DNA from: a virus | Lineage: Duplodnaviria; Heunggongvirae; Uroviricota; Caudoviricetes | Strand: one strand, 5' to 3' | Length of the DNA stretch: 27,747 nt | IMG/VR virus record: IMGVR_UViG_2675903278_000003 | Shown: positions 7,615-27,591 of the stretch, in pieces | Layout of the letters: every line of letters begins with the position of its first letter | Numbering within the stretch: the first letter of the stretch is position 1 | Notes under the pieces: model-generated | What the model was told of the DNA's origin: nothing | What the model saw: only the letters and a program-made list of their open reading frames with translations | Databases searched by the model: none | Program-made: the position numbers and the translations under genes

Positions 7615-7617
7615 CAG

Positions 7618-7869: not shown

Positions 7870-8737
7870 TTGTCACCCCCATTGATATGCAGGGTGTCTT
7901 CTTCCTGTATTTTTCGTGAAGGATTTTTACTGCAGCGTTGTTCCAGGTGACCTGATGGTGAATGCGTTTATGGCTGGCACCCATCAGTGAGATTTTTACG
8001 CACGACGGCGCATACATGACGGAGTAAAAACTTTTAACGTAGGTTCCGGAATCCAGATACAGCTCGGTCATTCCGCCGCTGTTTTTCTGCGTCTGTTTCT
8101 GCCCTAACTGGACAGCACCGATCGTCATAAACAATTCACCACAGCGACCGAGATTCGTGTACGTATTCACATCCTCGTTAATGCGCCCCATGAATGGGAA
8201 CGGTCGATCAACCGAACAGATAAAGCTGTTCATTGCCTTGCGTTTCACCCACGAAGCATGGCCGCCATTGTCACCAAGAAAATCCCCGCCCTGCGACATA
8301 GCGATGGAAAGAGCAGGTATTGATTCGTAGTACGCCAGCATTTCAGAAAGGATCGCATCCAGTTTCCTTATCGGAAAATAGGCCTGGTCATAGTTGCGAT
8401 CCACCCGAAACTGGAACTCGTGATAATCATCATCGAGCTGAATGAAGTATTTACACCCGACCAGTTTTGCCAGGTCGAAACAGGCATTACGGGCGTAAAA
8501 AATTGAGCGGCGGTCACAGAAATTATCGGCTTCGTCAAAACGACTGGCGATATCGGCTTTGGAAAACACCAGCACCTGTTCACCAAATTCAGCCATGTAC
8601 TGATTCCGTGTCTTATCTTCATCATCAACAACGATAAAAATTTTCCCGGTATAGCCAGCACGACGCAACGTCCGGTAAGTCAGAACTTTGTCCGGTCGCC
8701 CGTGAGTCAGAATAAAGGCGCAAAAATCATCACGCAT
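7805..8737 (-). CDS. GT2-family (GT-A fold) glycosyltransferase-like protein, apparently soluble (310 aa from ATG at 8737, MRDDFCAF...)
   Basis: From the ATG at 8735-8737 (SD 'GGAGGAGG' just upstream): 'FILTHGRPDKV' near residue 10, 'FIVVDDED' (DD about residue 38-39), 'FYARNACFDLAKLVGCKYFIQLDDDY' (ARN...DxD about residue 82-104), a spacing typical of GT2 enzymes; no methyltransferase motifs seen. Confidence 0.55.
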   Translation of the reverse strand: MRDDFCAFILTHGRPDKVLTYRTLRRAGYTGKIFIVVDDEDKTRNQYMAEFGEQVLVFSKADIASRFDEADNFCDRRSIFYARNACFDLAKLVGCKYFIQLDDDYHEFQFRVDRNYDQAYFPIRKLDAILSEMLAYYESIPALSIAMSQGGDFLGDNGGHASWVKRKAMNSFICSVDRPFPFMGRINEDVNTYTNLGRCGELFMTIGAVQLGQKQTQKNSGGMTELYLDSGTYVKSFYSVMYAPSCVKISLMGASHKRIHHQVTWNNAAVKILHEKYRKKTPCISMGVTNDSVFESRVSGSVPDDCTTNR

Positions 8738-9521
8738 ATTCCTCCTCCTCACCACCATGCATGATCTCCACCATGCGCTGCGTCATCCGGACAAATCCAT
8801 TTTCAATAGCCTGCTGATAATCAATGATCACCAGCGCCGACTCCTCGAAAAAACACTGAATTTCAGAGGGGGCGTGAGCGTAATAGTCCGCAATTCTGCT
8901 GAAATTAAACACCGTGTGACGTTCTGCCGCACACAGGAGGAATTTCTCAATATCAGGCTCAAGGGACGCCGAACGTATCCGGCTGATCAGCTCCTGAGTT
9001 TTCGTATCGTCGTACAGTTCACTGATATCCGGTTTACCGCCCGACGGCTCATAAACAGGCGTATCAATTTTCGTCGTATACGGCTCCTCCTCATTTCCTG
9101 TACCGGGCAAAACATCCGTCAACAGTTCATCAATTTCTGTCGGGATGAAGCCTGTCAGGGAGACATCAAAATCAGCATTGATTAGGTCCGACAGCTCCAT
9201 CCGCAACAGATCTTCATCCCAGCCAGCATTCATCGGCAGGCGATTATCTGCCAGGCGGTACGCCTTTTTCTGCTCATCCGTCAGGCCAGACAGAACAATG
9301 ACCGGAACAGAATCCATTTTGAGCATTTCAGCCGCCATAACACGACCGTGACCCGCAATAATTTCGCCCTTTTCGTCAATCAGCACCGGATTAGTCCAGC
9401 CGAATTGCTTAATACTTTCTACCAGTTGTGCCACCTGCTCAGGGCTGTGCGTCCTGGCGTTGTGCGCATACGGTGACAATTCTTGTAATGGGCGATAGAC
9501 TATCTTTAATTTCTCGCTCAT
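8730..9521 (-). CDS. ParB-like nuclease domain (ParB N-terminal / sulfiredoxin fold) protein
   Basis: 263 aa; N-terminal 'QFGWTNPVLIDEKGEIIAGHGRVMAA' resembles the ParB N-terminal domain motif; acidic C-terminus GGEEEEYA; stop TGA at 8730-8732 lies 3 nt after the ATG of the GT2-like gene (8-nt overlap). Confidence 0.7.
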   Translation of the reverse strand: MSEKLKIVYRPLQELSPYAHNARTHSPEQVAQLVESIKQFGWTNPVLIDEKGEIIAGHGRVMAAEMLKMDSVPVIVLSGLTDEQKKAYRLADNRLPMNAGWDEDLLRMELSDLINADFDVSLTGFIPTEIDELLTDVLPGTGNEEEPYTTKIDTPVYEPSGGKPDISELYDDTKTQELISRIRSASLEPDIEKFLLCAAERHTVFNFSRIADYYAHAPSEIQCFFEESALVIIDYQQAIENGFVRMTQRMVEIMHGGEEEEYA

Positions 9522-9658: not shown

Positions 9659-11134
9659 TTAGGAGCGCCAAAAAAAACCTGAAAACAATATAATAACAGG
9701 ATAAATTTCAAGGCGACCAAGAATCATAGCTATGCACATTAAACATTTTGCAATGTCATTAAGCACTCCGAATGACGATGCAGTAGCCCCAAAACCTAAT
9801 CCCATATTATTAATACATGCAGCCACTGTTGCAAATGATGTAAGAAAATCATATCCCATACCATTTAACACCAGTATAAAAAACACCGTGAAGAGAGTAT
9901 AAAGAAAAAAGAAACTCCATACAGACCTCATTACACGATCTGTAACTATCTTCCCTCCTACATTTACACTCAACAACGCTCTGGGATGAGAAAGCTGATT
10001 TATCTCGTGTTTGCTTTGTTTGAAAAGTATAAGAAATCGAAGTGACTTAATTCCACCACAAGTTGAACCTATACATCCCCCAAAGAAACTTGACAACAGC
10101 AAAAACACTATCGTGTGCGTGGGCCAACTTGCATAATCCTGCGTAGCTAAACCATTATCAGTGAGCATGGAGCTGGCAAGAAAAAACGAATGAATAAAAC
10201 TTCCATGCAAGTCATACATACCTATATGCCAGACCTGGAAAGAGGTAACAATGATCACCCCTAAGGCTATTAACAGAAAGAAACGAAGTTCAATATCTCT
10301 GATTAAAGGTTTTATCGTTTTCCTGCTAATAACAATATACCAAAGAGTGAAGTTGAAAGCCGATAGCAGGGAAAAAGAACCAGCCACCAGCTCAACCAAA
10401 TAGTTATTAAAATATCCGATACTCTCGCTATGAGTTGAGAAACCACCAAGCGAAACTGTGGAAATCCCGTGACAAATAGCATCAAACAAAGGCATTCCTG
10501 CAAGTCTATAACAGACAATACAAGCAATACCTAATAAAGAATAAGTTATCCACAGTGTCCGTGACGTATCGGCCAGGCGGGGAGTGAGTTTGTCATCCTT
10601 AAATGGCCCCGGCATTTCTGACTGATAAAGCTTTGCACCACCAATACCCAATAATGGCAATACAGCAACCGCCAGAACAATAACTCCTAAACCACCTATA
10701 AAATTTAACTGTGACCGATAGTACAAATATGCCCGAGGTAATGAACTAACATCATCAATTACAGTTGCTCCTGTTGTTGTTATTCCAGAAACCCCTTCAA
10801 ACAGAGCATCAATGAACGTTAAATTAAGTTCTGAGTCAATCCATAAAGGGAATGCACTAATAACAGAAAACAAAATCCAAAACATTACAATTATAATAAA
10901 CCCATCACGGGTACGTAATTGAATGCCAGATTTCTTAGTTGTATACCACGCTCCGCCACCAATGCAAAAAAATATAACGAAAGTTATAAAGAAAACGAAC
11001 AGGCTTTTTTCTTTATAAAACAATGCTACAACCATTGGTGGCAACATTGAAAGACTATAGAGCCAAACCAGGAACCCACACATATGAGTAACAACTCTTA
11101 CATGAGATGTATTCATATCTAAATATTCTTTCAA
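9659..11134 (-). CDS. trkG: TrkH/TrkG-family potassium uptake protein (prophage-borne, TrkG-like)
   Basis: 491-aa multi-TM protein with repeated glycine-rich selectivity-filter-like segments (GITTTGATV, GGLGV, GGFST, GFGAT); markedly AT-rich compared with neighbouring phage genes; sits directly after Rz/Rz1 as trkG does in the E. coli K-12 Rac prophage. Confidence 0.85.
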   Translation of the reverse strand: MKEYLDMNTSHVRVVTHMCGFLVWLYSLSMLPPMVVALFYKEKSLFVFFITFVIFFCIGGGAWYTTKKSGIQLRTRDGFIIIVMFWILFSVISAFPLWIDSELNLTFIDALFEGVSGITTTGATVIDDVSSLPRAYLYYRSQLNFIGGLGVIVLAVAVLPLLGIGGAKLYQSEMPGPFKDDKLTPRLADTSRTLWITYSLLGIACIVCYRLAGMPLFDAICHGISTVSLGGFSTHSESIGYFNNYLVELVAGSFSLLSAFNFTLWYIVISRKTIKPLIRDIELRFFLLIALGVIIVTSFQVWHIGMYDLHGSFIHSFFLASSMLTDNGLATQDYASWPTHTIVFLLLSSFFGGCIGSTCGGIKSLRFLILFKQSKHEINQLSHPRALLSVNVGGKIVTDRVMRSVWSFFFLYTLFTVFFILVLNGMGYDFLTSFATVAACINNMGLGFGATASSFGVLNDIAKCLMCIAMILGRLEIYPVIILFSGFFWRS

Positions 11135-12678: not shown

Positions 12679-13074
12679 CTAACCTCGCATGTCAAAGCCA
12701 GATTTCTGAAAATCTCTGTAGACTTCCGGATTGTTGAAGGCCGGAAATTTGGCTTTATGAGCTGCGGACTTTATCGCTTCGCAATAGGCTTTATCACCGT
12801 TACTGGTAGATATTTTTAACGCCGTGCCATCCTGAGAGAATTCCATATGCAACCTGCATTTTTTCCCTTTCCAGTTATGCGGCTCATCAAGTTTGGCATT
12901 AATTGCAGCTCTGATTCCCCGCGCTTGCGCCCCCCATTCATCCTGATCATCCCAGCGTCCTGAACTGCAACTACCTGTAGCAGTAGTTTTGTGGCAATCT
13001 GAAGGGTGTAAAGGTGTGCATCCCGCAACAAAACCGCCCCAAAAAGTCAACATAACGATTTTCTTTAATCCCAC
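12679..13074 (-). CDS. Predicted lipoprotein A (131 aa, GTG start), paralogue of the adjacent gene
   Basis: SD 'GGAG' 6 nt upstream of GTG at 13074; signal peptide with lipobox 'FVAGC'; C-terminal region 'KKCRLHMEFSQDGTALKI...AYCEAIKSAAHKAKFPAFNNPEVYRDFQKSGFDMRG' aligns with the C-terminus of the 13225-13653 product. Confidence 0.7.
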   Translation of the reverse strand: MGLKKIVMLTFWGGFVAGCTPLHPSDCHKTTATGSCSSGRWDDQDEWGAQARGIRAAINAKLDEPHNWKGKKCRLHMEFSQDGTALKISTSNGDKAYCEAIKSAAHKAKFPAFNNPEVYRDFQKSGFDMRG

Positions 13075-13224
13075 TTCTTGCTCCTCAATCCATTAAAATC
13101 TCAGCAATAGTAGTTGTTACGTCCGCCACTGGCTCAGAGCTGACTATCCGCTAAATTTAGCTCAGTGCCGTAGCTGTGTCAGAACAAACCTAAGCCGAAA
13201 CCGTTTATTACAAAACAATAAATA

Positions 13225-13653
13225 TCAGGGTTTAAAATCCAGCACCCCATTTTGAAATACTTTATATACTTCCGGCGAAGGGGGGGCAGGTATATCAGCA
13301 TTCTTTATCGCATTCATCGCTTCACGACATAAATCGAGGTCTCCACTTTCTCTTTTAACCTCCAGTAGAAGGCCATTCGGGGCCATATGCATTCTCAGTG
13401 TACACTCTTTTCCTGAATACTTACTCGCATCCCCGAACTGTTTTTCGATGGCGCTCTTGATTTGATGGGCATACAGACGGATATCCTCACTAACATCAGA
13501 AGTACGTTCAGATGAACTCACATACTGTGTCTCTATTGCTTTATCGGAGTAATATGATGTACGGTCATGATAATTTGTCGATACAGCATCAGTGCACCCG
13601 ATAATAATCCCACTAATAATCAACGTAAGAATTGATGCGCTACGAAAACCCAT
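13225..13653 (-). CDS. Predicted lipoprotein B (142 aa), paralogue of the adjacent gene
   Basis: SD 'GAGGA' upstream of ATG at 13653; signal peptide with lipobox 'IIGC'; C-terminal 'KECTLRMHMAPNGLLLEV...DLCREAMNAIKNADIPAPPSPEVYKVFQNGVLDFKP' parallels lipoprotein A. Confidence 0.7.
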   Translation of the reverse strand: MGFRSASILTLIISGIIIGCTDAVSTNYHDRTSYYSDKAIETQYVSSSERTSDVSEDIRLYAHQIKSAIEKQFGDASKYSGKECTLRMHMAPNGLLLEVKRESGDLDLCREAMNAIKNADIPAPPSPEVYKVFQNGVLDFKP

Positions 13654-15240: not shown

Positions 15241-15527
15241 AAATGACCTTTCTTTCTCCAGATTTCTTGTGTGCGAAAAACCCCTTCAGCATGCATCAGG
15301 CGCAATTCTTCTTTGGTGTAATCGCTGGTTTTTACCCGCCCGTCGATTAGATCGTGGCATGAGCTACAGGCTATCGCCGCCTGCATATCGTGTGGTTTTG
15401 TCGCTGTTCCGCACGTCCCCGCCAGCCTGTAATGCGCCAGCACAGAGGTTTCGGGATTGTGATTGCAGTAGCCAGGGATTCTGATCTGGCACATCTGGCC
15501 TTTAGCCGCTTTACGTAAATTCACCAT
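15237..15527 (-). CDS. YbcO-like (DUF1364) small Cys/His-rich nin-region protein
   Basis: 96 aa 'MVNLRKAAKGQMCQIRIPGYCNHNPETSVLAHYRLAGTCGTATKPHDMQAAIACSSCHDLIDGR...' resembles E. coli DLP12 YbcO as recalled; overlaps the Q-like start (ATGA) as in nin operons. Confidence 0.55.
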   Translation of the reverse strand: MVNLRKAAKGQMCQIRIPGYCNHNPETSVLAHYRLAGTCGTATKPHDMQAAIACSSCHDLIDGRVKTSDYTKEELRLMHAEGVFRTQEIWRKKGHL

Positions 15528-16486: not shown

Positions 16487-16594
16487 AAATATTCACAGAT
16501 AAAATAAACTCGCCGAATCAGGTTAAGTGTGGGTGCGTTGAGGATGCCTGACACATCAGAGGCGGCGAGGGATTTCTCCCTCGCCTAGTCACTC

Positions 16595-16750
16595 TTACTC
16601 CTCAGGTTCGTAAGCTGTGAAGACAGCGACCTCCGTCTGACCGGTTCGGATTCGCACCTCGCAGAGGTCTTTCCTCGTTACCAGTGCCGTCACTATGACG
16701 GTTAAACAGATGACAATCAGTGCGACTAACATCGCCTTTTGCTGCTTCAT
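16595..16750 (-). CDS. hok: Hok-family type I toxin (HokD/RelF-like), 51 aa
   Basis: MKQQKAMLVALIVICLTVIVTALVTRKDLCEVRIRTGQTEVAVFTAYEPEE is near-identical to my recollection of E. coli HokD/RelF; 3' hairpin 'ggcgagggatttctccctcgcc' (16564-16585) and a 9-bp-stem hairpin in the leader (about 16850-16890) fit hok mRNA architecture; the ORF-track start at 16807 is an in-frame upstream extension. Confidence 0.85.
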   Translation of the reverse strand: MKQQKAMLVALIVICLTVIVTALVTRKDLCEVRIRTGQTEVAVFTAYEPEE

Positions 16751-16961
16751 AGCCTGCTTCTCCTTGCCTTCCGGCGCGTAAGAGGCTAACCTACATGTGC
16801 AAAGCATGAAATTGGCCTCAGATTAATGTTAAGCGTCTTGCCGGACGCGTAATGTTATCTGGGGCTTTTCTCTATCTGCCTTTGGTGTTCATGCCTGAGG
16901 CAGATAGCCTCAAGCACCCGCAGCAATTCTACTTAACTCCCGTCACCTCGCCAATATAAAA

Positions 16962-17051
16962 TCAATCAGAAAGGCGATCCATAAGAACAACAGCAAGACA
17001 ATAAATTGCCATTACAGCCGCAATAGCTAGCGCACATTTGAGAACCAGCAC
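16962..17051 (-). CDS. Candidate small hydrophobic peptide (29 aa, GTG start) VLVLKCALAIAAVMAIYCLAVVLMDRLSD
   Basis: SD 'AGGAGG' 5 nt upstream of GTG at 17049-17051; single predicted TM helix with charged C-terminus; different frame from the 74-aa track ORF 16966-17190. Confidence 0.3.
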   Translation of the reverse strand: MLVLKCALAIAAVMAIYCLAVVLMDRLSD

Positions 17052-17470
17052 GACAACCTCCTGTATTGGACGTACACCAGTTCTGATAAATATGAGGCTG
17101 TCTCATCATTGATTCAATATAACTATTGGGTATAGTTTCTGTGATTTTGTTCTGTAGAAATGGAACACAACAACCAGTCACCACCAGCACTTCTTTAAAT
17201 ACGCCAAGTCCGACGCAAGCTAACCTTCTAGTCCGCTTTGAGCGAGGAGCGGACCAAACCCGGCCAACTGACTCTTAAAGGGGCCGCAGGAATTTTTCGT
17301 CTGAACTTTCGAAGCTCCTCTCCCTGAAGACAGAAAACTTCTGTGTGCTGTGGGAATATTGAATCTTTGCCTTAGATATAAATAATTTTATCCCGCCTGA
17401 AGTTTACATTATTTTATTTATCTGTTTTTCTAAATCAGACTGCACTCCTTACTTAAATCAGGAGCCAGTC

Positions 17471-18670
17471 ATGCCATTTGTTATTTATGTGTTTACTATC
17501 AGTGCCTTTGCGCTCGGACTCGCGGAATTTGTCCCCATTGGGCTGACAGACGTTATGGCTCAGGGGTTGTGTGTGGGTGTGGAGCAGACCGGGGCAGCGG
17601 TTACAACCTATGCACTGGGGGCAACGTTCGCGGCACCCGTACTGTCTGCGCTGACAGCAAGCTGGAGCCGGAAAAATGTAATGCTTACAACTGCCGTTGT
17701 GTTTACTGCCGGTAGTCTGGCGGCCGCGTTTGCAGCCACATTACCTCAGCTCCTGTTAGCGCGGTTCATTGCTGGTCTGGGACACGGCCTGTTTCTGGCT
17801 GCGGCATCCAGTACCGCAGCTCGTCTTGCTGGACCGGGTAAAGCAGGCAGAGCGGTGGCTGTGGTATTTGGTGGCTTTACTCTGGCGATGGCAATCGGCG
17901 TACCGCTGAGTACATGGTTGGGGGGGGTGGTCTCATGGCGTCCAGTTCTCGGCGCTATTGCCGCTTTTGGCGCGTTCGGATTCCTTGGACTGTTGTTCGG
18001 TATGAAAGATCCCGTACGCAGCGTGCCCGGTGAACATAGTGACTCAGCAATGCAGAATATCGGCATGCTGTTTAACCGTAAGTTGCTGGCCGGCGCGCTG
18101 GTTACGGTGCTGGCGTATGCAGGCTCGTTTACGGATTACACCTTTATCGCACCTATTCTGACGCAGGTGACAGGGGTTACCGGAGCAACGGTGAGTCTGT
18201 TTATGCTGGTTTACGGTATTACAGCTGCGGTAGGTAATATTCTTGGTGGGAAACTTACCGACAGCATGGGGGTTAATCGTGCCAATATACTCATCATTAG
18301 CGGCATTGTTGTTGTCGTGCTTGGTATGTGGCTGCTGTCATCCTCACCGGTGAGCATGGGCATTCTGGTTGCGCTGCTGGGTATGGTGACATTTGCCGCA
18401 GTGCCGGCACTGCAGGCCCGTCTGATTGGTGTCGCTGAGCAACATGCTCCTCATGCGCATGGTGTTGCTGCCGGCCTGAATATTGCGGGCTTCAACTCAG
18501 GTATAGCGCTGGGATCAGTACTGGGCAGCATTACTATAAGCCACGCCGGTATCGTGTATACCGGTATCAGCGGTGCGATTGTTTCTCTGCTCGGCCTGCT
18601 GTTGCTGCTTGCACAAATCCGTCGCAGCCACAGTCGTAAATTTCAACAGGTTAAAATCGTAGGCCAGTAA
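17471..18670 (+). CDS. MFS-superfamily transporter (12-TM type)
   Basis: 399-aa hydrophobic, Gly/Ala-rich protein; SD 'CAGGAG' upstream of ATG; first gene of the cargo block. Confidence 0.8.
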   Translation: MPFVIYVFTISAFALGLAEFVPIGLTDVMAQGLCVGVEQTGAAVTTYALGATFAAPVLSALTASWSRKNVMLTTAVVFTAGSLAAAFAATLPQLLLARFIAGLGHGLFLAAASSTAARLAGPGKAGRAVAVVFGGFTLAMAIGVPLSTWLGGVVSWRPVLGAIAAFGAFGFLGLLFGMKDPVRSVPGEHSDSAMQNIGMLFNRKLLAGALVTVLAYAGSFTDYTFIAPILTQVTGVTGATVSLFMLVYGITAAVGNILGGKLTDSMGVNRANILIISGIVVVVLGMWLLSSSPVSMGILVALLGMVTFAAVPALQARLIGVAEQHAPHAHGVAAGLNIAGFNSGIALGSVLGSITISHAGIVYTGISGAIVSLLGLLLLLAQIRRSHSRKFQQVKIVGQ

Positions 18671-18681
18671 AGGGAGGTTAT

Positions 18682-19374
18682 ATGCTTACCCGTGAAAATA
18701 TGCTTAATGGCACATTTGTCAGGGTGCATGAAGCGCTGCTCCCGGCGAATATGCTCTGGGACGCTGAAAAAATACGCGCATCAATGAACTCTACTCTGGA
18801 GGAGCGCCCGACGGGTGCTCCTGTCTGGATATTTGCCTACGGGTCATTGATGTGGAATCCCGTGCTGGCGATTGAAGAAATGCAACGGGCCCGTCTGAAA
18901 GGATGGCAGCGCAGTTTCTGCATTCGTTTGATATCCGGACGAGCGACTCCTGATGTCCCCGGCAGGATGTTATCGCTCGACGAAGGTGGAATTACCGAAG
19001 GTATTGCGTTCAGACTGCCGGAATCGACTCTTATTAATGAGCTGGAAATTGTCTGGACGCGCGAGATGATAACCGGTCTTTACCGTCCGGTCTGGGCAGA
19101 CGTTTCGCTAGGAAACGGTGAGGAAATTCAGGCGCTGGCTTTCGTATCAGACAGACTGCATCCGCATTATGAACAGGACAATCTTACAGCGACCGTAGCG
19201 TTGAGCATCGCATCTGCCCGTGGAGACATTGGCACGAATGCAGATTATGTATGGAAACTGCAGGCCACTCTGGGTGCGTTGGGAATACGGGATGATTACG
19301 TGAGTGAACTGGCCCTTGCTCTGCATGAGGCTCCCTGTAACGATAAACTTCATCAGCGAGGCGCTTCACTATGA
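18682..19374 (+). CDS. ChaC-like gamma-glutamylcyclotransferase family protein
   Basis: 230 aa with 'VWIFAYGSLMWNP' (YGSL motif characteristic of the ChaC/GGCT family); SD 'AGGGAGG' upstream; 11 nt after the MFS stop. Confidence 0.75.
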   Translation: MLTRENMLNGTFVRVHEALLPANMLWDAEKIRASMNSTLEERPTGAPVWIFAYGSLMWNPVLAIEEMQRARLKGWQRSFCIRLISGRATPDVPGRMLSLDEGGITEGIAFRLPESTLINELEIVWTREMITGLYRPVWADVSLGNGEEIQALAFVSDRLHPHYEQDNLTATVALSIASARGDIGTNADYVWKLQATLGALGIRDDYVSELALALHEAPCNDKLHQRGASL

Positions 19375-20252
19375 GCCATCTGAGCCATCTGCGAACGTTT
19401 CTTGAGGCCTATCGCTCTGGCTCCTTTTCAAAGGCGGCAGAACTACTGGGCATCACTCAGCCCGCGGCGTCACAGCATATCCAGTCTCTTGAGACTCTGG
19501 TTGGTAAGCGTCTGTTTATCAGGCAGGCCAGAGGCGTGACGGCAACCGAAGCTGCGGATGAGCTTGCCCGCTCAGTTTCACCCTTCATTGATGGTCTGGA
19601 AGAAAAGCTGTCCTCTTTCCGGTCAGGCTCTGTACGCGGGGGAACAATTAATCTGGCAGGACCGCCAGATTTTATTCATTCCCGGCTTGGGACAGTAATG
19701 GCTCCACTAATGAAGGAGGGGTATCGCCTACGCTTTCATACCGGCAATAAGCAACGTATTTATTCCCTTTTGCATGACGGGAGCGCCGATCTCGCTGTTA
19801 CCGCATCTATGCCTGATGACCGTCTGTACGGCTATGCACATCTACTGACTGAACGCATGCTCCTTGTTCATGCTCCCGCCATGTCAGAGATCATCGGATC
19901 AGAACCTGGTGCTGAAACGCTTGCCTCATTACCGCTGATTGCTTATGACGAAGAGTTGCCACTGATTAGAGCGCTCTGGGCCTCCATGTTTCAGAGAGCC
20001 CCTGAGATGCAGGCTACATTCACCATTCCGGATTTACGTATTATCCGCGACTTGGTCTGTGACGGCCACGGGTGGACAGTGCTGCCGGATTATCACTGTG
20101 ACAATGACCTGAAAAGTGGTCGCCTGATTTCAGTGACACCTGCAGACCTCGCTCCGACTAATCATCTTTATCTGGTCTGGAACAAAAGGACGGCTAATAA
20201 CAGCCGAACCGCCTATGTTCGGGATTACATTCTTAAAACGTTTCCGCGTTGA
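19371..20252 (+). CDS. LysR-family transcriptional regulator
   Basis: N-terminal HTH 'LRTFLEAYRSGSFSKAAELLGITQPAASQHIQSLE' then a substrate-binding-like domain; ATG overlaps the ChaC-like stop (ATGA); the first codons contain a 9-bp tandem duplication 'agccatctgagccatctg' (SHLSHL). Confidence 0.8.
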   Translation: MSHLSHLRTFLEAYRSGSFSKAAELLGITQPAASQHIQSLETLVGKRLFIRQARGVTATEAADELARSVSPFIDGLEEKLSSFRSGSVRGGTINLAGPPDFIHSRLGTVMAPLMKEGYRLRFHTGNKQRIYSLLHDGSADLAVTASMPDDRLYGYAHLLTERMLLVHAPAMSEIIGSEPGAETLASLPLIAYDEELPLIRALWASMFQRAPEMQATFTIPDLRIIRDLVCDGHGWTVLPDYHCDNDLKSGRLISVTPADLAPTNHLYLVWNKRTANNSRTAYVRDYILKTFPR

Positions 20253-20296
20253 TGTTTGAAACGGATGATTGGCGATGCGTATCATAAGTTACGTAT

Positions 20297-20326
20297 GTCC
20301 GCTTCTGGCACAAAGCAGACGCCCAC
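20297..20326. repeat. 30-bp repeat copy 1 ('gtccgcttctggcacaaagcagacgcccac'), partner at 23970-23999
   Basis: 24 of 30 positions identical to the copy at 23970-23999 by eye, with an exact shared core 'ttggcacaaagc' / 'ctggcacaaagc'; lies in the convergent intergenic region between the LysR and DUF2254-like genes. Confidence 0.55.
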
Positions 20327-20382
20327 TCTCACGCGAATGCTTTGCCCTTGACTTGCCAACAACCGTATCGCTTGCTCCGCAA

Positions 20383-21675
20383 CTATGGTTTTTTATTAGA
20401 ATCTTCGCCACTAAATAAATTATAATAAATTGATTTTATTAGATATCTGTCAGAATCTATATGGTCAGCACGAGTAGCATGCTCTAATGTTTCAAATGCT
20501 AGGGTTTGTGCGGCTTCAGCAAAAATTCCAGGCCAACCCTTACTCAGCATCGACAGTCCTTTAAGTACCCTTATCTGAATTTCCCTCATACTGGCACCAT
20601 CGCGCGCAACAGGTGAGAAAAAGTCTTCAAGTAGATCGTTATTCTGAAGTGGTGCAACATGTACAGAAGGATATTTCACTTCTATTTCATCAGATTTATT
20701 CTGCGCGTAAGCGGAAAGTATACGTACACCTCTGCCAATGACATCAATGGCGGTTCCAGGATCGTTCACTGCGGGGGAAAGGGCTCGGCAGGCTATTTCG
20801 GCCATGACGCTAAGACAAAATCGGGGGTCCTGAGCAAATGAACGTACATCCGAGACAATAATCGTCTCAAGTAAATCGGTGCTGATTGATGACTCCTGGC
20901 CCTGACTCAGGTACAAAACTGGCGTGGACGGATGTATGAAACTGCCCGGCTGCGCCACGAGGTATACATGACGGGGATCATTGGTCAGCAGCTTGCTGAG
21001 TTTCACCATATCAACATATTCAACATAGCCAATCTTTTTCGGATAAACTGCAACCGTTCCTTTCGGCTGTTCATTGTTCTCAAGCCATGGATATCCGCCG
21101 AGACAGGGATTTCTTGCTCTCGCAATAAATGTTTCGATGGCCGCCTGTTCTACTTTTGCCGTTGTCTCACCAACCCTCCCCAGAGAGGTCAAATGCTGTA
21201 TCCAGCGAAGCAATGTGATGAGGATTAAGGCAATGACAACCAGTGTTACAATGAATAAAATGACTCTCCCCCTTTCTCCATAAGCTCCCATATTGAGGGC
21301 AATAATCCCTACCAGACTGAAGAGAAAAGAACCGATGAAGGTGGCCAGTACATTTTGTGTGGTGACGTCTTCAACAACTAAACGAGTAGCTCTGGGAGTC
21401 ACATTAGTAGTGGCTGAACCGTAGGCTGTGACCATGATGCTCAGCGAAAATGTGGTCACTGCCAGCATACTCGATGCCAGTATGTTCAGAATGTTATCGA
21501 CTGCTTCCGCACCAACCTTCACGGAAACCGACTCAGGTATCATTGATTTAAAAAGAATTGATAAAAGGGCCGTTATTATTGCGACAATTGCGAATAACGT
21601 TGCCCTGAACCATAGTTTTTTAAATGTCTGCTTCAGCATCCATTTCCAGCGTGAAATCATTCTGCATTCCCTCAT
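20383..21675 (-). CDS. DUF2254-like membrane protein (N-terminal TM helices plus large soluble domain)
   Basis: 430-aa ORF with about four N-terminal hydrophobic helices; family name from memory; start may be at the internal Met (MISRWKW...). Confidence 0.6.
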   Translation of the reverse strand: MRECRMISRWKWMLKQTFKKLWFRATLFAIVAIITALLSILFKSMIPESVSVKVGAEAVDNILNILASSMLAVTTFSLSIMVTAYGSATTNVTPRATRLVVEDVTTQNVLATFIGSFLFSLVGIIALNMGAYGERGRVILFIVTLVVIALILITLLRWIQHLTSLGRVGETTAKVEQAAIETFIARARNPCLGGYPWLENNEQPKGTVAVYPKKIGYVEYVDMVKLSKLLTNDPRHVYLVAQPGSFIHPSTPVLYLSQGQESSISTDLLETIIVSDVRSFAQDPRFCLSVMAEIACRALSPAVNDPGTAIDVIGRGVRILSAYAQNKSDEIEVKYPSVHVAPLQNNDLLEDFFSPVARDGASMREIQIRVLKGLSMLSKGWPGIFAEAAQTLAFETLEHATRADHIDSDRYLIKSIYYNLFSGEDSNKKP

Positions 21676-21723
21676 ATTGCAGCCGGGATAAATAAATGCC
21701 GCCTCTGTGGCGGCATGTTGCTG

Positions 21724-23727
21724 TTAACGAACCAGATGCAGGAAGTGCAGGTGTTTTTCGTACTGGTCCAGTATGTCATTAATCAGCTGTTCCTGATTCC
21801 AGCCCATTACATCATAATTTTGGCCGCCCTCTTTGAGATAGACTTCAGCGCGATAATATCGATGTTGTTCACTCTGCTGCTCATCATTATCCAGCGCAGC
21901 GAGCGCGAAGGTCGGTGAGTTATACCCGCGAAGCCTCACTTCATATATATAATTCAGCTCGTTGCCCAAATCGACTTCAAGGCGAATACGATCCTCGGCG
22001 GCGTCACTGATGTGGCTTATCGTTCCCTGCTTGTTAAGTTCCTCCTGAACCAGCGTCATGGCGGGTTGGATAATGTCGTCCATAAAACGTTTCACAAGAG
22101 AGCGCTTCGGCAAATACGCGATATTGCGTAACCTTCTCTGCCAGGGAATTGGGTTACGTGCAGCCGTAGGAGCAATAGTCGCCATGCTAAGGCTTTCACG
22201 CTTGGTCAAATCCCGACGCAGGGCTTTTAACAGTCCGTATATGGATATTAATAAGATAACTGAGAAGGGCAATGCACTCGCTATCGTTACGGTTTGCAAC
22301 GCACTCAGCCCCCCTGCGATCAGCAGGGCAATAGCAACAACGCCCATGAGCGATGCCCAGAAAATTCGCTGCCAGACGGGCGTGTTTGCCACCCCACCTG
22401 ATGCCAGAGTATCCACAACCATTGCCCCCGAATCAGCAGACGTTACAAAGAAGACGATGACCATCGCCATTGCAATGAATGACAGCACGGAAGAGAACGG
22501 GAAATGCTCCAGGAAATTAAACAGGGCAAGCGCAACATCCTGCTGAACGGTATTGGCGAGGTCAGTGGCGCCCTGGTTCATGATGAGATAGATGGCGCTG
22601 TTTCCAAACACCGTCATCCACATGAGCGTAAAGCCGGCGGGAACAAACAACACGCCAGTCACGAACTCACGAATTGTCCTGCCGCGGGAAACGCGTGCAA
22701 TGAACATACCTACAAACGGCGACCATGAAAGCCACCATCCCCAGTATAATAATGTCCAGCCCCCCAGCCAGTTGCTCGACTTGGGTTCATACGCGTAAAG
22801 GTTGAACGTTTTACTCACCAGTTCCGACAGATAACCACCCGTATTTTCCACAAATGACTTCAGCAGAAGCACAGTGGGACCCAGGCACAAGACCAGCGCC
22901 AGGAGCAACACCGCCAGGCCCAGATTAAGCTCAGACAGGATGCGTATTCCCTTGTCCAGGCCGGACACCACCGAAATCGTCGCTAACCCCGTGATGACCA
23001 CGATCAAAATGACCTGTACCGTTTCATTGATGGGCACGCCGAAAAGATGGTTCAAACCGGCATTCACCTGCAATACACCGTAACCCAGCGATGTTGCAAC
23101 GCCAAAGACAGTGCCTATCACGGCGAAGATATCAACCGCGTGGCCTATAGGCCCGTAAATGCGATCGCCGATAATGGGATAGAGCGCAGAACGCAGCGTT
23201 AAAGGCAGACCGTGACGGTAACTGAAAAAGGCCAGAATCAGCGCCACGATGGCATAAATTGCCCATGCGTGCAGACCCCAGTGGAAGAACGTCAGGCGCA
23301 TGGCTTCCTTCGCTGCCGCAACGGTCTCTGGAGTGCCGACAGGTGGCGAAAGATAATGCATCACAGGTTCGGCAACGCCAAAGAACATCAGGCCGATCCC
23401 CATCCCTGCCGAAAAAAGCATCGCGAACCAGGAGTGGTAGCTGAAATCAGGCTGCGCATGGTCTGGGCCCAGCTTTATATCACCGTAACGTGAGAGTCCA
23501 AGGAACGTGACGCTCAGTAAAATCAGGGCCACAGCAAGTATGTAGAACCAGCTGGCATTCGTGAAGATTTGTTGCTGAAGTAGTTTAAAATTTTTGTCGG
23601 CGACATCCGGGAATACGGCGGCAAAGGCGACAAGAAGGAAAATTAGCAAAGCAGATGTAAAGAATACCGCTTTGTTAATCTGGCTTGTAGACTTCTTTGG
23701 GGTTGTATCATTTTCACTCATAATCAT
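21724..23727 (-). CDS. BCCT-family transporter (BetT/BetU-like choline or glycine-betaine transporter)
   Basis: 667 aa, multi-TM with Trp-rich segment 'GGWTLLYWGWWLSWSPFVGMFIARVSRGRTIREF' typical of BCCT transporters, long hydrophilic C-terminal tail. Confidence 0.85.
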   Translation of the reverse strand: MIMSENDTTPKKSTSQINKAVFFTSALLIFLLVAFAAVFPDVADKNFKLLQQQIFTNASWFYILAVALILLSVTFLGLSRYGDIKLGPDHAQPDFSYHSWFAMLFSAGMGIGLMFFGVAEPVMHYLSPPVGTPETVAAAKEAMRLTFFHWGLHAWAIYAIVALILAFFSYRHGLPLTLRSALYPIIGDRIYGPIGHAVDIFAVIGTVFGVATSLGYGVLQVNAGLNHLFGVPINETVQVILIVVITGLATISVVSGLDKGIRILSELNLGLAVLLLALVLCLGPTVLLLKSFVENTGGYLSELVSKTFNLYAYEPKSSNWLGGWTLLYWGWWLSWSPFVGMFIARVSRGRTIREFVTGVLFVPAGFTLMWMTVFGNSAIYLIMNQGATDLANTVQQDVALALFNFLEHFPFSSVLSFIAMAMVIVFFVTSADSGAMVVDTLASGGVANTPVWQRIFWASLMGVVAIALLIAGGLSALQTVTIASALPFSVILLISIYGLLKALRRDLTKRESLSMATIAPTAARNPIPWQRRLRNIAYLPKRSLVKRFMDDIIQPAMTLVQEELNKQGTISHISDAAEDRIRLEVDLGNELNYIYEVRLRGYNSPTFALAALDNDEQQSEQHRYYRAEVYLKEGGQNYDVMGWNQEQLINDILDQYEKHLHFLHLVR

Positions 23728-23969
23728 TTATTCCATTAATTAAATCCGCACTGGATAGAAGGTACTACCTCTCACAGAGTAGCAAAGTTCAACTGGCTAT
23801 GCGGGGTTAATCGGAATGCATGGTGGAATGAGTGCCGATACAAATCATCCTATATTCTAAGGAGTTTTAAGTTACTCAGCCTGCCAATTACTGGGGCATT
23901 TAATTTGTATGATCTGTATCAAAGCTGGGATATAAGTTAAGTGAAGTATATTAGGCACGAATTACCAGC

Positions 23970-23999
23970 GTCTGCTCTTGGCACAAAGCGGACAACCAC
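23970..23999. repeat. 30-bp repeat copy 2 ('gtctgctcttggcacaaagcggacaaccac')
   Basis: See copy 1 at 20297-20326; this copy lies in the promoter-side intergenic region upstream of the BCCT gene. Confidence 0.55.
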
Positions 24000-24061
24000 G
24001 CTAGCTCTACCCTGTGCCACAAAATGTCAATTTGCATCTGAACTAATGCACTTTAATCTCG

Positions 24062-24484
24062 TCACTTCAATAAATACCGAACATCCCCCTGATAAAACGA
24101 CAATATGCGCTGCATAACTTCGCTCTTCCGGCACTCGCGACAGATTATGTTTAGGCGACTGTCGTAGCGACGTATTTCTCCGTCAGGTAATGACCAGATA
24201 AGGTCCGGATCAACCACAACCGGTTTCTTCAGCTTTGCCCTCGATAATTTTTTGCGGGCATTTTGCCAGTCTTTACGAGCCTGTTCAGACGGGAATAACC
24301 CGTAGCCAGAATTGTATACATCGCCACTGGCAACCAGCTCTCTGGCCAGAACGCTCATCAGATATCTTGTTGCCCCAGTTTTAGCTTCCAGTTGTCGTAA
24401 CGTCTCGCGCCCACTCTGGCGTACGAGTTCAAGAACCTGCCCTTTAATTTTTTCCCGCTCTTCTTGTGTAAAAACTTTTGCCAC
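24062..24484 (-). CDS. Hypothetical phage protein (140 aa, GTG start), downstream of the O-like gene
   Basis: SD 'AGGAGGG' upstream of GTG at 24484; basic protein with CxxC near the C-terminus; no Walker A motif, so not a DnaC/P-type helicase loader. Confidence 0.55.
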   Translation of the reverse strand: MAKVFTQEEREKIKGQVLELVRQSGRETLRQLEAKTGATRYLMSVLARELVASGDVYNSGYGLFPSEQARKDWQNARKKLSRAKLKKPVVVDPDLIWSLPDGEIRRYDSRLNIICRECRKSEVMQRILSFYQGDVRYLLK

Positions 24485-24524
24485 AAGCCCTCCTGAAAAT
24501 TACCTCATGACCAGAAATTAACAC

Positions 24525-25595
24525 TTACCCCCTGAAGCCCGGCGGAATTTCGTTATCCGGTTCAGAAATATGATTCACACAACGCTGGTTGTTCGTGCCG
24601 CTTACCGGGAGCAACCAGGGGTTCTCAAAATTCCGGTCCGGTCCAAAAAACGTCGTCGCTCGCTGAACAAATTCCGTTCCCGTTTTCCCGGTAGCCGCCA
24701 AGTATCTTGCGTAACGCCTCACGCCATCCAGCATGGCCTCTGGTGGCACCCCCTCGCGTAATCTGGCCTTCCAGGCACTGAAAGCGGATTTCTTCGGGTT
24801 TGCCCCAGCACGCAACGGGTACTCCCGCCAGACCTGTTCGAACACATCCGGATAATCCACTCGTCCCACAGACTGCCCGGTGTTTTCCGGGACTACCCGA
24901 TCGGCTTCCCGCTGAATGGCGGAATCGGCTTCAGGCTGCTGCAGTTGGTGTGATTGCTCCGCCCTTGCGGTCATCACCTGCTGCACAGCGCCCGAATCGG
25001 CTTTCAGCGCATACGCTGAATCGGCTTCCGGTGTCGTGCCTGCTGGCTGACCAAGATTGACGGTCTGAACATCCCCTGCCTGGTTCGTGGCGTTTTTTAC
25101 GCCATGGACCATAGTGTTTTGATCTTCTTGATCTGTATCTTTATCTGTATCTTTATCTGTCGTGACTCGTCGTGACATGTGCGTGACATTTCGTGACGCG
25201 CCGTGACAATCGCCATTTTGTTCCCGCTTTCTTTCCCTCTCTCGCTGCGCCCTCTTGCGCTCTGCAGGAGATTTTGCGGTTTGCGAAATATTGCCGTTGT
25301 CCTCTTTAAGCACCTGGCGTTTTTCCCATCCAGTGATTAAATCACCATCAAGTACCCGCCCCTGCATCGTCTGCAAAATTGAATCAATTACCTCTTCTGT
25401 CACGTCGAGCGCACTTGCCAAATCTTCTGTCGTGACATCAATGTGACCTCGCGTGACATTTCGTGACGCGCTCACCAGGAGGTGGATATACACTGCCATC
25501 ACTGTTGCAATTGGCTGTCCTGACACCCTGGCAATTGTTCGCCACTTAGGGTCATTTGGCATGTCATGCCATAATCTGAGCCAGGCGTTAGCCAT
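24525..25595 (-). CDS. Replication initiator (lambda O-like / YdaU-like replisome organiser) containing internal iterons
   Basis: 356 aa from ATG at 25595 (MANAWLRLWHDMPNDPKW...); the coding sequence contains two clusters of GTGAC-type repeats, as lambda O carries its own ori iterons; low-complexity acidic middle (DKDTDKDTDQED); located downstream of Cro-like/YdaT-like genes. Confidence 0.6.
   Translation of the reverse strand: MANAWLRLWHDMPNDPKWRTIARVSGQPIATVMAVYIHLLVSASRNVTRGHIDVTTEDLASALDVTEEVIDSILQTMQGRVLDGDLITGWEKRQVLKEDNGNISQTAKSPAERKRAQRERERKREQNGDCHGASRNVTHMSRRVTTDKDTDKDTDQEDQNTMVHGVKNATNQAGDVQTVNLGQPAGTTPEADSAYALKADSGAVQQVMTARAEQSHQLQQPEADSAIQREADRVVPENTGQSVGRVDYPDVFEQVWREYPLRAGANPKKSAFSAWKARLREGVPPEAMLDGVRRYARYLAATGKTGTEFVQRATTFFGPDRNFENPWLLPVSGTNNQRCVNHISEPDNEIPPGFRG
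25161..25210. repeat. Iteron cluster A: five copies of a 10-bp-periodic 'cGTGACa' motif, adjacent to an AT/GATC-rich stretch (about 25115-25160) with tandem 'tatctttatctg'
   Basis: 'cgtgactcgt cgtgacatgt gcgtgacatt tcgtgacgcg ccgtgacaat' read directly from the sequence; the 20-mer 'gcgtgacatttcgtgacgcg' recurs exactly at 25451-25470. Confidence 0.7.
25427..25470. repeat. Iteron cluster B: four GTGAC-type repeats including an exact 20-bp copy of part of cluster A
   Basis: 'ctgtcgtgacatcaatgtgacctcgcgtgacatttcgtgacgcg'; also within the O-like coding region (encodes SRNVT-type peptide repeats). Confidence 0.65.
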
Positions 25596-25666
25596 ACTCA
25601 CCTCTTTTGATACCGAATCTTTTTACTCACAAATTGCCGGAAGTGATCCGGTATGAATATTGCGAG

Positions 25667-26092
25667 TCAATGCACAGCCACAATATTTCCTGCAGGGCCA
25701 CCACGATTCATCTGGTTGAAACCAGCGATCGCCACTGCGACAAAATCATCAGCGTCTCTCACCAGTCGTTCCCGCGTCTCCACTAGTTCCCGAAAATAGG
25801 CTGAGCTATGGCTGCGCATTCGGGCCACCAGCAGAGGTGGCATTGCTTTTTCGATAGCTGGTAACAACGCCTGAATTTTTTCAACTGCATCAGGGGTGTC
25901 TTTCTCTACCCAGCGGAAAATTTTCTGGGTATTGCGAGCCAGGGCTTCCGGATGGCTGTCGTCATACAGTTCTGGGAACGTCATACCCAGTTCAAAATAA
26001 GCCCTGGTTATTTCAGCTGCCGGAACTTTTTCACCGTCCGGATGCGCCCAGGCATTCATCGCCATGCGGATGTGTTCATGCTTGATTTTCAT
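25667..26092 (-). CDS. YdaT-like (CII-like / DUF1019) regulatory protein
   Basis: 141-aa 'MKIKHEHIRMAMNAWAHPDGEKVPAAEITRAYFELG...'; second gene of the rightward-equivalent early operon after the Cro-like gene, as ydaS-ydaT in Rac; name from recalled similarity. Confidence 0.55.
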   Translation of the reverse strand: MKIKHEHIRMAMNAWAHPDGEKVPAAEITRAYFELGMTFPELYDDSHPEALARNTQKIFRWVEKDTPDAVEKIQALLPAIEKAMPPLLVARMRSHSSAYFRELVETRERLVRDADDFVAVAIAGFNQMNRGGPAGNIVAVH

Positions 26093-26357
26093 GAATCAAG
26101 CTCCTAGAAAGTGGTTGTGTTAACATTTTGGTATCTTCCAGCTCGGGCCAAATATTCATCCAATCAAAAGGCCTTAGTTGCTGACGTGTAACTTCACCAT
26201 TACTGGCTCGCTCAATAAGGACACATAACGATGCCCCTAACACTTGACCTTTACTCAATGCCTTTCTTAGATAACCGATGCTGGTACCACACTCGCATGC
26301 AAACATACGCTGTTCATCTGACGAAAGAGAATTGAGAAATATTCTTAATTCTTCCAT
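26076..26357 (-). CDS. Cro-like / YdaS-like HTH regulator
   Basis: 93 aa with HTH-like 'RMFACECGTSIGYLRKALSKGQ'; SD 'AAGGAG' upstream; divergently transcribed from the repressor gene across an operator-rich intergenic region. Confidence 0.65.
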   Translation of the reverse strand: MEELRIFLNSLSSDEQRMFACECGTSIGYLRKALSKGQVLGASLCVLIERASNGEVTRQQLRPFDWMNIWPELEDTKMLTQPLSRSLIHENQA

Positions 26358-26461
26358 AGCTACTCCTTAGTAAACACAGCAAAGAACACCCATAGGTAAA
26401 CAAAAGTCAATACCCACAGGTTGTTTACCTTGCAGTAATCGCATCTATTATTTACCTATGG
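26358..26461. promoter_or_regulatory. Divergent immunity-region promoter/operator segment with at least three copies of a 'CCATAGGTAAACA'-like motif in both orientations
   Basis: 'cataggtaaaca' forward at 26391-26402, 'ggttgtttacct' (reverse) at 26420-26431, 'atttacctatgg' (reverse) at 26450-26461 overlapping the repressor ATG, and a weaker 'tagtaaaca' at 26368-26376 over the Cro-like SD. Confidence 0.6.
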
Positions 26462-26877
26462 ACAAATATGAATTTAGACGACAGCAACTCATCAAAATTC
26501 GTGATGAGAAATGCGATGGTAAAGCGGTTAACGTGGCCAGAAAGATCGGGCGCGAGCCTTCTTATGTATCAAGAATGTTGTACCCAGAGGGGAAAAAGGG
26601 AAAAAAACGGATCGCTGATGATATGGTGGAGATTATCGAAGAGTCCTTTGGGTTACCCCGGGGATGGATGGATGGTATCGTTTCATCATCAACGAACACA
26701 GCCTCCAGTTATGAAACAAGGGTTCTAACGCCACGACAACGTATTTTTTTAGATCTCTTAGACGAACTGCCAGAAAGTGAAGCGGATAACTTATTAAAAA
26801 CTCTTGAAGAGAAAAAACAGTATTACAATATGATCTACGAAGAAATCCGTAAAAAGAAAGCACAAAACGCATCATAG
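26458..26877 (+). CDS. Prophage repressor (RacR/CI-functional analogue), HTH protein
   Basis: 139 aa with HTH 'KAVNVARKIGREPSYVSRML'; divergent from the Cro-like gene; no recognisable SD, and the start codon lies within an operator-like repeat (leaderless-like arrangement). Confidence 0.65.
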   Translation: MDKYEFRRQQLIKIRDEKCDGKAVNVARKIGREPSYVSRMLYPEGKKGKKRIADDMVEIIEESFGLPRGWMDGIVSSSTNTASSYETRVLTPRQRIFLDLLDELPESEADNLLKTLEEKKQYYNMIYEEIRKKKAQNAS

Positions 26878-27087: not shown

Positions 27088-27591
27088 TTATTGATAGTGT
27101 TTTATGTTCAGATAATGCCCGATGACTTTGTCATGCAGCTCCACCGATTTTGAGAACGACAGCGACTTCCGTCCCAGCTGTGCCAGGTGCTGCCTCAGAT
27201 TCAGGTTATGCCGCTCAATTCGCTGCGTATATCGCTTGCTGATTACGTGCAGCTTTCCCTTCAGGCGGGATTCATACAGCGGCCAGCCATCCGTCATCCA
27301 TATCACCACGTCAAAGGGTGACAGCAGGCTCATAAGACGCCCCAGCGTCGCCATAGTGCGTTCACCGAATACGTGCGCAACAACCGTCTTCCGGAGACTG
27401 TCATACGCGTAAAACAGCCAGCGCTGGCGCGATTTAGCCCCGACGTATCCCCACTGTTCGTCCATTTCCGCGCAGACGATGACGTCACTGCCCGGCTGTA
27501 TGCGCGAGGTTACCGACTGCGGCCTGAGTTTTTTAAGTGACGTAAAATCGTGTTGAGGCCAACGCCCATAATGCGGGCAGTTGCCCGGCAT
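27088..27591 (-). CDS. insB: IS1 InsB reading frame (expressed as InsAB' fusion by -1 frameshift)
   Basis: 167-aa frame matching the partial copy at 2-283 apart from Q vs R at one position. Confidence 0.85.

Follow-up and report, generated by a model that had tools for sequence, protein, structure and literature searches.

The window examined here is IMG/VR record IMGVR_UViG_2675903278_000003, a stretch of 27,747 nucleotides (nt), to whose full length all positions below refer unless another locus is named. It represents a lambdoid prophage of the Rac type, with ttcA as its integration site, and DNA identical to it lies there, between pinR/ynaE and intR, in many Escherichia coli genomes. Within it, a 6.7-kb block of five genes fills a slot between a Ren-like DUF977 gene and hok/sok; this block, the two cassettes into which it divides, and the 24-nt sites at their ends are the subject of this account. 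The early-right operon reads Cro-like, CII/YdaT-like, initiator, Ren-like DUF977, the variable slot, hok/sok, NinB-like and Q-like, such that in lambda terms (O-P-ren-ninB) the slot is the ren-ninB junction. Judged by its genes the block covers 17471-24061; judged by loss of homology to related phages it covers the slightly wider interval 17255-23969. The initial annotation of this DNA had placed five cargo genes here and assigned each to a family, and both positions and families are borne out by the open reading frames and by Pfam and NCBIfam profile matches.

Three of these genes, all on the plus strand, constitute cassette A (17255-20294; 3040 bp). They encode an MFS transporter (17471-18670; MFS_1, E = 2.8e-42), a ChaC-like gamma-glutamylcyclotransferase (18682-19374; PF04752, E = 3e-35, 122 bits) and a LysR regulator (19371-20252; HTH_1 and LysR_substrate), the latter two genes sharing a 4-nt overlap, ATGA, which bears out the overlapping stop and start pointed out earlier. 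The ChaC-like protein contains YGSLMW, and the glutamates of its ELE and TRE motifs line up with E74 and E83 of human ChaC2, which we take to be the catalytic residues; a PDB sequence search matched it to human ChaC2 structures (E = 5e-8), the alignment bringing YGSL and the two glutamates into register. From this composition we infer a unit under LysR regulation in which an MFS transporter of the DHA1 type goes together with a ChaC-family enzyme, and the likely role of the unit is the handling of a gamma-glutamyl compound. Cassette A occurs in 311 of 5426 complete E. coli genomes; of the 312 records that match, 310 do so at no less than 99% identity. Megablast returned no match to it on plasmids or phages. 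Outside E. coli, in data comprising one genome per species, the closest ChaC relatives, from Serratia and Erwinia, reach 60-62% identity and have different neighbors; relatives of the MFS and LysR genes were not found within ~8 kb of the ChaC homologue at the best 40 of those loci (tblastn, E <= 1e-10). A chaC gene together with a LysR gene has previously been listed as cargo of a Qin prophage in one strain (PMC6379469).

Cassette B (20295-23969; 3675 bp) is read on the minus strand and comprises a DUF2254 membrane protein (20383-21675; E = 1.6e-92) and the BCCT transporter BetU (21724-23727; PF02028, E = 7e-199, 662 bits). BetU scores 752 bits for the NCBIfam BetT subfamily, above the cut-off of 695, and stays below that of the betaine_BCCT equivalog (593.5 vs 650). 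Positions 20390-20412 match a published cloning primer for Tn6062; the second Tn6062 primer, with up to 3 mismatches allowed, had no match in the window. The fragment implied, of 3.4 kb, runs colinearly with 20392 to ~23797, which supports orthology with the Tn6062 pair. A cloned fragment of Tn6062 carrying these two genes conferred growth on S. Typhi in 0.8 M NaCl (Holt et al. 2011, PMC3139670). The earlier suggestion that one half of the block concerns osmoprotectants thus survives in a more definite form, betU and the DUF2254 gene being the cargo pair of Tn6062, and cassette B is predicted to import betaine-type osmoprotectants. BetU (21724-23727) is one of two osmoregulatory transporters in this one prophage, the other being encoded by trkG (9659-11134; K+ uptake; GC content 0.38); a 2004 study by Ly and colleagues is said, by its title, to have surveyed the trkG and betU loci jointly across E. 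coli isolates.

The slot itself is best defined by comparison with relatives that have both of its arms and different contents between them. Homology to the phages Tritos and Evi spans 16506-17254 and resumes from 23970 onward, and a second Rac variant (H79, locus L007) matches 16947-17254 and 20295-24700, two other genes having taken the place of MFS-ChaC-LysR. In Tritos the slot contains one 444-aa gene, in Evi a regulator and an acetyltransferase, and in H79 the two other genes together with cassette B. The interval of L007 that stands in place of cassette A (6581-9002) consists of two single-gene cassettes, of 319 aa and 225 aa, with a further site between them. More generally, the slot in relatives of this prophage holds very different accessory genes, often for anti-phage defence. 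The five genes appear dispensable for phage growth, as judged indirectly from plaque-forming Tritos, which has none of them. The description of the block as accessory prophage cargo is sound, since it is absent from K-12 Rac and flanked by backbone common to isolated phages. The further idea that all five genes form a single islet has to be given up in favor of two independently mobile cassettes.

What delimits these cassettes is a 24-nt imperfect palindrome, GTCYGCTNNT followed by SGCWCAAAGCRGAC, of which the window holds three copies where none is expected by chance; the expectation is only 0.02 per window even when up to 4 mismatches are allowed. In each copy the left arm, GTCYGCTNNT, is specific to the cassette, the centre is asymmetric and reads GGCACA or CGCTCA, and the right arm is AAGCRGAC; the centres divide the sites into a G-type (GGCAC) and a C-type (CGCTC). 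The C-type copy, GTCCGCTCCT followed by CGCTCAAAGCGGAC when read on the minus strand, lies at 17231-17254 on that strand with its conserved 14-mer towards the hok arm. Both G-type copies are on the plus strand: one (GTCCGCTTCT followed by GGCACAAAGCAGAC; 20297-20320) marks the junction of A and B, and the other (GTCTGCTCTT followed by GGCACAAAGCGGAC; 23970-23993) has its conserved 14-mer towards the DUF977 arm. Together with 17218-17254, the copy at 23970 also makes up an inverted repeat, imperfect and 37 nt long. Taken whole, the block (17255-23969) has a minus-strand C-type site at 17231 on its left and a plus-strand G-type site at 23970 on its right, with conserved arms facing outward; cassette A is bounded by the former and by the G-type site at 20297, and cassette B by two plus-strand G-type sites, at 20297 and 23970, in direct configuration. 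The 24-nt sites were not found in lambda between ren and ninB, nor in K-12 Rac.

Breakpoints derived from homology to Tritos, Evi, the H79 variant and the IncY plasmid pPO125 fall between 17254 and 17255, between 20294 and 20295, and between 23969 and 23970, each of them on a copy of the motif; it is at 17254 that homology to Tritos, Evi and H79 stops. An alignment of junctions from five contexts resolves the sites into two portions, the left 10 nt (GTCYGCTNNT) travelling with the cargo and the right 14 nt, (G/C)GC(A/T)CAAAGCRGAC, remaining with the neighboring DNA along with the sequence beyond. A fourth, degenerate site-like element, GTCCGCCACTGGCTCAGAGCTGAC, with 3 mismatches, occurs at 13121-13144 in the Q-to-lysis interval, between open reading frames 12679-13074 and 13225-13653, two genes with TolA C-terminal domains; it is identical at the equivalent place in other Rac-like loci, and the TolA-C-terminal-domain morons around it may be cassettes too.

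Cassette B stands out as a discrete unit between these boundaries. Plasmid pPO125 carries it over exactly 20295-23969, at 99.9% identity, with different flanks and two of the 24-nt sites around it; one breakpoint there lies on the other side of the centre, after GGCACA, between positions 16 and 17 of the site. Altogether cassette B is found on 1532 plasmids, without cassette A in further Rac variants, and joined to seven different left partners at one same nucleotide. At ~94% identity it is present elsewhere in the chromosome in ~1557 records; for the betU locus commonly seen on chromosomes, the match extends over 20301-23830 with 94.5% identity. Cassette B is accompanied by a small recombinase gene and a gene for a 476-aa protein, the three being at least 99% identical throughout, on no fewer than 82 plasmids, which come from E. 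coli, Shigella, Klebsiella and Enterobacter.

The sites extend well beyond this prophage. Scanned for the G-type pattern, IMG/VR yielded at least 120 contigs; loci were chosen for containing a G-type site, and the frequencies that follow, which hold among the matches listed, are biased accordingly. In ~85 loci analyzed we distinguished at least 47 inter-site segments, 37 of which have a minus-strand C-type site on one side and a plus-strand G-type site on the other. Across 44 unrelated cassettes, positions 1-7 and 10-24 of the site are 77-100% conserved and the DNA upstream is random. Where cassettes form arrays, C-type and G-type sites stand back to back with a conserved linker of 15-19 nt between them, and at 56 of 80 loci the terminal G-type site lies 72-101 nt downstream of a DUF977 gene. 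In other backbones the sites adjoin a tail sheath gene of P2 type or the gene for a UmuC-like polymerase, or lie near Lom and tail-fibre-assembly genes, and they are also present in strain 'clone D i2', in a chromosomal island; no gene common to all site-bearing backbones was found. In phage P2 itself (locus L214), fun(Z), a classical gene of lysogenic conversion, lies between a minus-strand G-type site (15335-15358) and a plus-strand C-type site (17432-17455), again with conserved arms outward, and P2-like contigs contain two-cassette arrays at the Z/fun locus, while the sites were not found in the tin/old and orf30 variable regions of P2. Lambdoid and P2-like phages, plasmids and islands are thus all among the carriers. 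The cassettes hold defence-type genes—PD-T7-1, PD-T7-5, DarTG, AbiH, several PADLOC (PDC) candidate systems and a Pycsar-type TIR protein—as well as GNATs, LysE, HAD and NUDIX proteins and another protein of the gamma-glutamylcyclotransferase fold.

How might such cassettes move? The sites combine inverted arms of 7-10 bp with an asymmetric centre of 6-7 bp, and exchange probably occurs by site-specific recombination. We propose that cassettes would be inserted, excised and swapped conservatively at the 24-nt sites by an enzyme acting in trans, most likely a tyrosine recombinase; the pPO125 breakpoint between positions 16 and 17 fits an overlap region of 6-7 bp. Sites of the two centre types would not cross-react, allowing a cassette with one of each to be exchanged without excision, and cassette B, which has G-type sites on both sides, could leave as a circle. 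A candidate for the enzyme is a tyrosine recombinase of 202 aa (WP_001752951 family), comprising a complete catalytic domain only, that is encoded inside site-bounded segments on pPO125, in the slot of a Qin-like prophage and in an island (genes at 4302-4907 of locus L008 and at 7007-7609 of both L212 and L211). Its nearest families are XerC, XerA and integron integrases and the Fim-type invertases, all matched far below their cut-offs, and it is present in 864 of the 5426 E. coli genomes (~16%).

The most serious alternative, which we nevertheless hold to be unlikely, is relaxed homologous recombination by the RecET proteins of Rac, a lambda Red-like system or RecA, for which the boundary sequences of 14-37 nt would be short patches of homology. 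On that account the palindromes exist for some other reason, for instance as a protein operator or as RNA structure by which morons are shielded from read-through. Rac does encode RecE and RecT next door, its backbone arms offer the 37-nt imperfect inverted repeat and further conserved flank, no dedicated recombinase adjoins the sites, and homologous recombination is the mechanism favored by Rousset et al. for the hotspots of P2 and P4. However, the plasmid flanks of cassette B share with the phage only 14-24 nt of the site, and the same sites occur in backbones that have no other homology. Nor does homologous recombination require the well-conserved left arm that each unrelated cassette keeps, and a 2026 analysis deemed it unlikely for exchange between phages and plasmids (PMC13586616). 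Recombination of the tyrosine type is favored because the breakpoints are nucleotide-precise, because unrelated cassettes each bring their own left arm into otherwise unrelated backbones, and because cassette B stands between two sites in a plasmid with one breakpoint between positions 16 and 17.

Delivery of the block by insertion sequence (IS) elements or as a composite transposon in the manner of Tn6062, or its survival as ancestral chromosomal DNA trapped between phage fragments, is very improbable. The betU pair does move as Tn6062 and is flanked by IS1 or IS903 on plasmids of Klebsiella and Salmonella—on the Klebsiella plasmids next to the sil operon—and the chromosomal betU locus sits among IS elements, yet no IS, terminal inverted repeat or target duplication is to be seen at 17255, 20295 or 23969 in the window. 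As to trapped chromosomal DNA, which the initial annotation had raised against its own reading as core chromosome invaded by phage fragments, both flanks are contiguous phage backbone common to isolated phages, and the block, missing from K-12 Rac and from most E. coli, is present in only ~297 of the 5426 genomes (~5%).

There remains the question of whether the cargo displaced anything, on which the neighboring replication module bears. Across the slot boundary lies the 140-aa DUF977 protein (24062-24484, minus strand; PF06163, E = 2e-28; phrog_142 'Ren-like', E = 4.7e-45), the C-terminal 20 aa of which are 45% identical to lambda Ren (pairwise E = 5e-6); pairwise comparison detected no similarity to lambda P, and a PDB sequence search no relative. 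Profile search, which had been put forward as the check on this protein, hence identifies it as the counterpart of lambda Ren and not as a loader. The 358-aa initiator (24525-25601, minus strand) matches phrog_3729 over its full length (E = 2e-257) and, in residues 124-358, phrog_1701 'DnaD-like helicase loader'; a PDB sequence search of it matched only a short tail of DnaT. The part of its gene that codes for an acidic linker contains iteron-like repeats, namely four copies of GAAGCCGATTC at 24898-25028 and three tandem 12-mers at 25126-25161, and this interval (24898-25161) is put forward as a candidate origin, its arrangement being that of lambda O.

The same module operates in phages that grow. 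The initiator is 98.6% identical to that of Tritos, and 98.0-98.6% across Tritos, Evi and four vB_Eco isolates, in all of which the DUF977 gene follows after 40 nt. Tritos shares the whole Cro-like/YdaT-like/initiator/DUF977 module and has no other replication gene in its genome of 46 kb; it is spontaneously induced, makes virions, forms a plaque on MG1655 hsdR- and has been propagated to confluent lysis (PMC9928086), and Evi is a coliphage isolated from infant faeces (PMC10910852). Initiators of this family function with no P or DnaC protein from the phage, and would probably recruit host DnaB-DnaC through a DnaD-like or DnaT-like C-terminal domain. The initial annotation was correct that the O-like initiator and the 140-aa protein have no Walker A motif, and none was found in the neighboring YdaT-like and Cro-like early proteins either. 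Lambda P is itself not a Walker A protein, which makes that motif an unsuitable criterion. In K-12 Rac the module is a different one, of YdaU (DUF1376), YdaV (IstB/DnaC-like, matching IstB_IS21) and YdaW (DUF1627), in which the loader gene directly follows the initiator gene; YdaW showed no similarity and is not a DUF977 protein. That the cargo replaced a DnaC/P-type loader gene and rendered the prophage replication-dead, as was first concluded from the want of a Walker A protein beside the initiator and as YdaV of K-12 Rac might encourage one to think, is contradicted and is the least credible explanation of all, since the K-12 loader sits directly after an unrelated initiator and before the next gene, the P position here is a gap of 40 nt exactly as in Tritos and Evi with the cargo at ren-ninB, and Tritos forms plaques and propagates with no loader. 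No replication gene has been displaced.

The reading we favor—two cassettes in the ren-ninB slot, exchanged site-specifically at 24-nt sites, with nothing displaced—we regard, as a whole, as probable though by no means secure, and a number of results weigh against it. Among the matches listed, 80 loci yielded no recombinase gene that consistently adjoins the sites, and the window contains no copy of the 202-aa recombinase gene. Neither a recombination event nor a circular intermediate came to light, and a precisely empty site was not found either: of the 219 genomes in which the slot measures at most 1.2 kb, the smallest instance (strain A20, ~230 bp) is a deletion remnant with one intact site, and the reconstructed empty plasmid site had no match in PLSDB. 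Co-variation of cassette ends at position 4, taken to signal that circles with perfect palindromes had integrated, was seen in the first five cassettes and failed in L090, L106, L122 and L132, and was rejected. Cassette A is always accompanied by B in E. coli, and its independent mobility is seen only as replacement in another Rac variant. Its proposed function is drawn from family membership. The resemblance of the last 24 aa of the initiator to the DnaT C-terminus is short and weak (PDB 6aep, E = 0.003; NCBIfam, E = 7e-4). The choice of scanned loci by their G-type sites, with the bias described above, belongs here as well.

Beyond this locus, the sites might be the recombination sites of a system for cassette exchange that is general among Enterobacteria and lacks a resident integrase, a natural two-type form of recombinase-mediated cassette exchange with the 202-aa recombinase acting in trans. 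This broader proposal is tentative, and we would sooner doubt it than rely on it. Our literature searches did not find the conserved 14-mer, and found 'DUF977' only in one unrelated paper; in the literature on phage defence hotspots that we found, the ren-ninB slot is not named as a hotspot and the boundary sites are not mentioned. Reportedly, and going by its title, a 2004 article by Nilsson, Karlsson and Haggard-Ljungquist in Mol Biol Evol proposes site-specific recombination for the variable Z/fun locus of P2. Taken with the sites around fun(Z), that title makes a prior description likely, and repeats of this kind in P2-like phages may already have been reported there.

In the immunity and early region (25667-26877), where gene order is the same as in Tritos and Evi, the repressor gene (26458-26877, plus strand) is followed on the minus strand by Cro/YdaS-like (26076-26357) and CII/YdaT-like (25667-26092) genes. 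The left backbone arm of the slot carries the hokD toxin gene (16595-16750, minus strand; phrog_251, E = 1.6e-32), which bears that name at the equivalent place in strain TOE3, together with an overlapping mok reading frame that extends to 16807 on the same strand and the sok antisense RNA (16745-16919, minus strand; Rfam RF01794, 116 bits vs a gathering score of 59). Past hok/sok, on the minus-strand reading, come NinB-like, DUF1364 and Q-like genes and the two TolA-C-terminal-domain genes, and further on holin, lysozyme and Rz, then trkG, a ParB-like and a glycosyltransferase gene, and finally the genes for terminase, portal and a coat protein of P22 type. The gene for the ParB_N-domain protein (8730-9521) overlaps that for a TET-associated glycosyltransferase family protein (7805-8758), and this pair, which lies between trkG and terminase, may be a DNA-modification module. 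An IS1 copy (27088-27591) lies ~200 nt beyond the repressor gene, at the place where ydaG, ydaF and sieB stand in related genomes. Its interruption of the early-left region is an independent reason to think the prophage defective; with the loss of tail genes in relatives, it may be defective on grounds other than a loader.

By itself the block is ordinary prophage cargo. It shows that one prophage of the Rac type can hold both TrkG and BetU, each an osmoregulatory transporter, and it has spread to ~5% of sequenced E. coli. It also corrects a shortcut of annotation, as a lambdoid prophage without a DnaC/P-like gene is not for that reason replication-dead. As late as 2026, the route by which accessory genes pass between phage hotspots and plasmids was called unresolved (PMC13586616); a searchable 24-nt site, a cassette common to prophage and plasmid and a candidate recombinase render that question directly testable. 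With the sites, the limits of cassettes in enterobacterial prophages can be set by a simple rule, which in turn helps to find new defence genes there. Were the general proposal to prove true, one system would move defence and niche-adaptation cassettes among the ren-ninB slot of lambdoid phages, the Z/fun locus of P2, plasmids and islands.

Several known systems bear comparison with the locus. As in the lambda O/P module, an initiator gene follows cII, iteron-like repeats lie mid-gene and a Ren-like gene comes next; unlike lambda, there is no P homologue, and the initiator has no detectable similarity to O, its C-terminal half matching DnaD-like and primosomal families and ending in a DnaT-like tail. 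Cassette B has the same two genes in the same order as the Tn6062/betU locus, DUF2254 and BetU, at a DNA identity of ~93-94%. There, however, the pair is carried by IS elements, whereas here it lies between two 24-nt sites inside a prophage with no IS, and the present allele, 99.9% identical to copies on IncY-type plasmids, is distinct from the common chromosomal one. The moron and defence hotspots of temperate phages (P2 and P4: Rousset 2022, Vassallo 2022; the nin-region morons of lambda) likewise occupy a fixed position between conserved genes and hold unrelated, often AT-rich units of one to three genes in either orientation, many of them known or candidate anti-phage systems, but the slot described here is the ren-ninB junction of lambdoid phages, adjoining hok/sok. 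At the Z/fun locus of P2 the resemblance reaches the sites themselves, fun(Z) having one G-type and one C-type site in the same outward arrangement as the block.

Integron cassettes and their attC sites offer another parallel: compact, promoter-independent units separated by imperfect palindromes, with part of the site travelling with the cassette. The sites here have paired 7-bp inverted boxes, four of which make up a junction of ~66 nt, and directly flanked cassettes could circularize. Unlike integrons, there is no adjacent platform of intI, attI and Pc, and among the matches listed no integrase was found adjoining the sites in 80 loci; the boxes read GTCYGCT/AGCRGAC rather than the GTTRRRY core of integrons, most cassettes lie between inverted sites of two centre types, and a cassette may contain several genes in either orientation. 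The shufflons of IncI plasmids (Rci/sfx) are likewise built on asymmetric sites, of whose two arms one is conserved and the other variable, and on inverted site pairs that flank segments; the G-type centre contains GTGCCAA, the sequence of the sfx spacer. In contrast to shufflons, it is the opposite side of the centre that bears the conserved arm, no rci gene was found nearby, and the segments are complete unrelated genes rather than alternative C-termini of a single gene. An analogy for the pairing of two centre types comes from engineered recombinase-mediated cassette exchange, which uses heterospecific site pairs.

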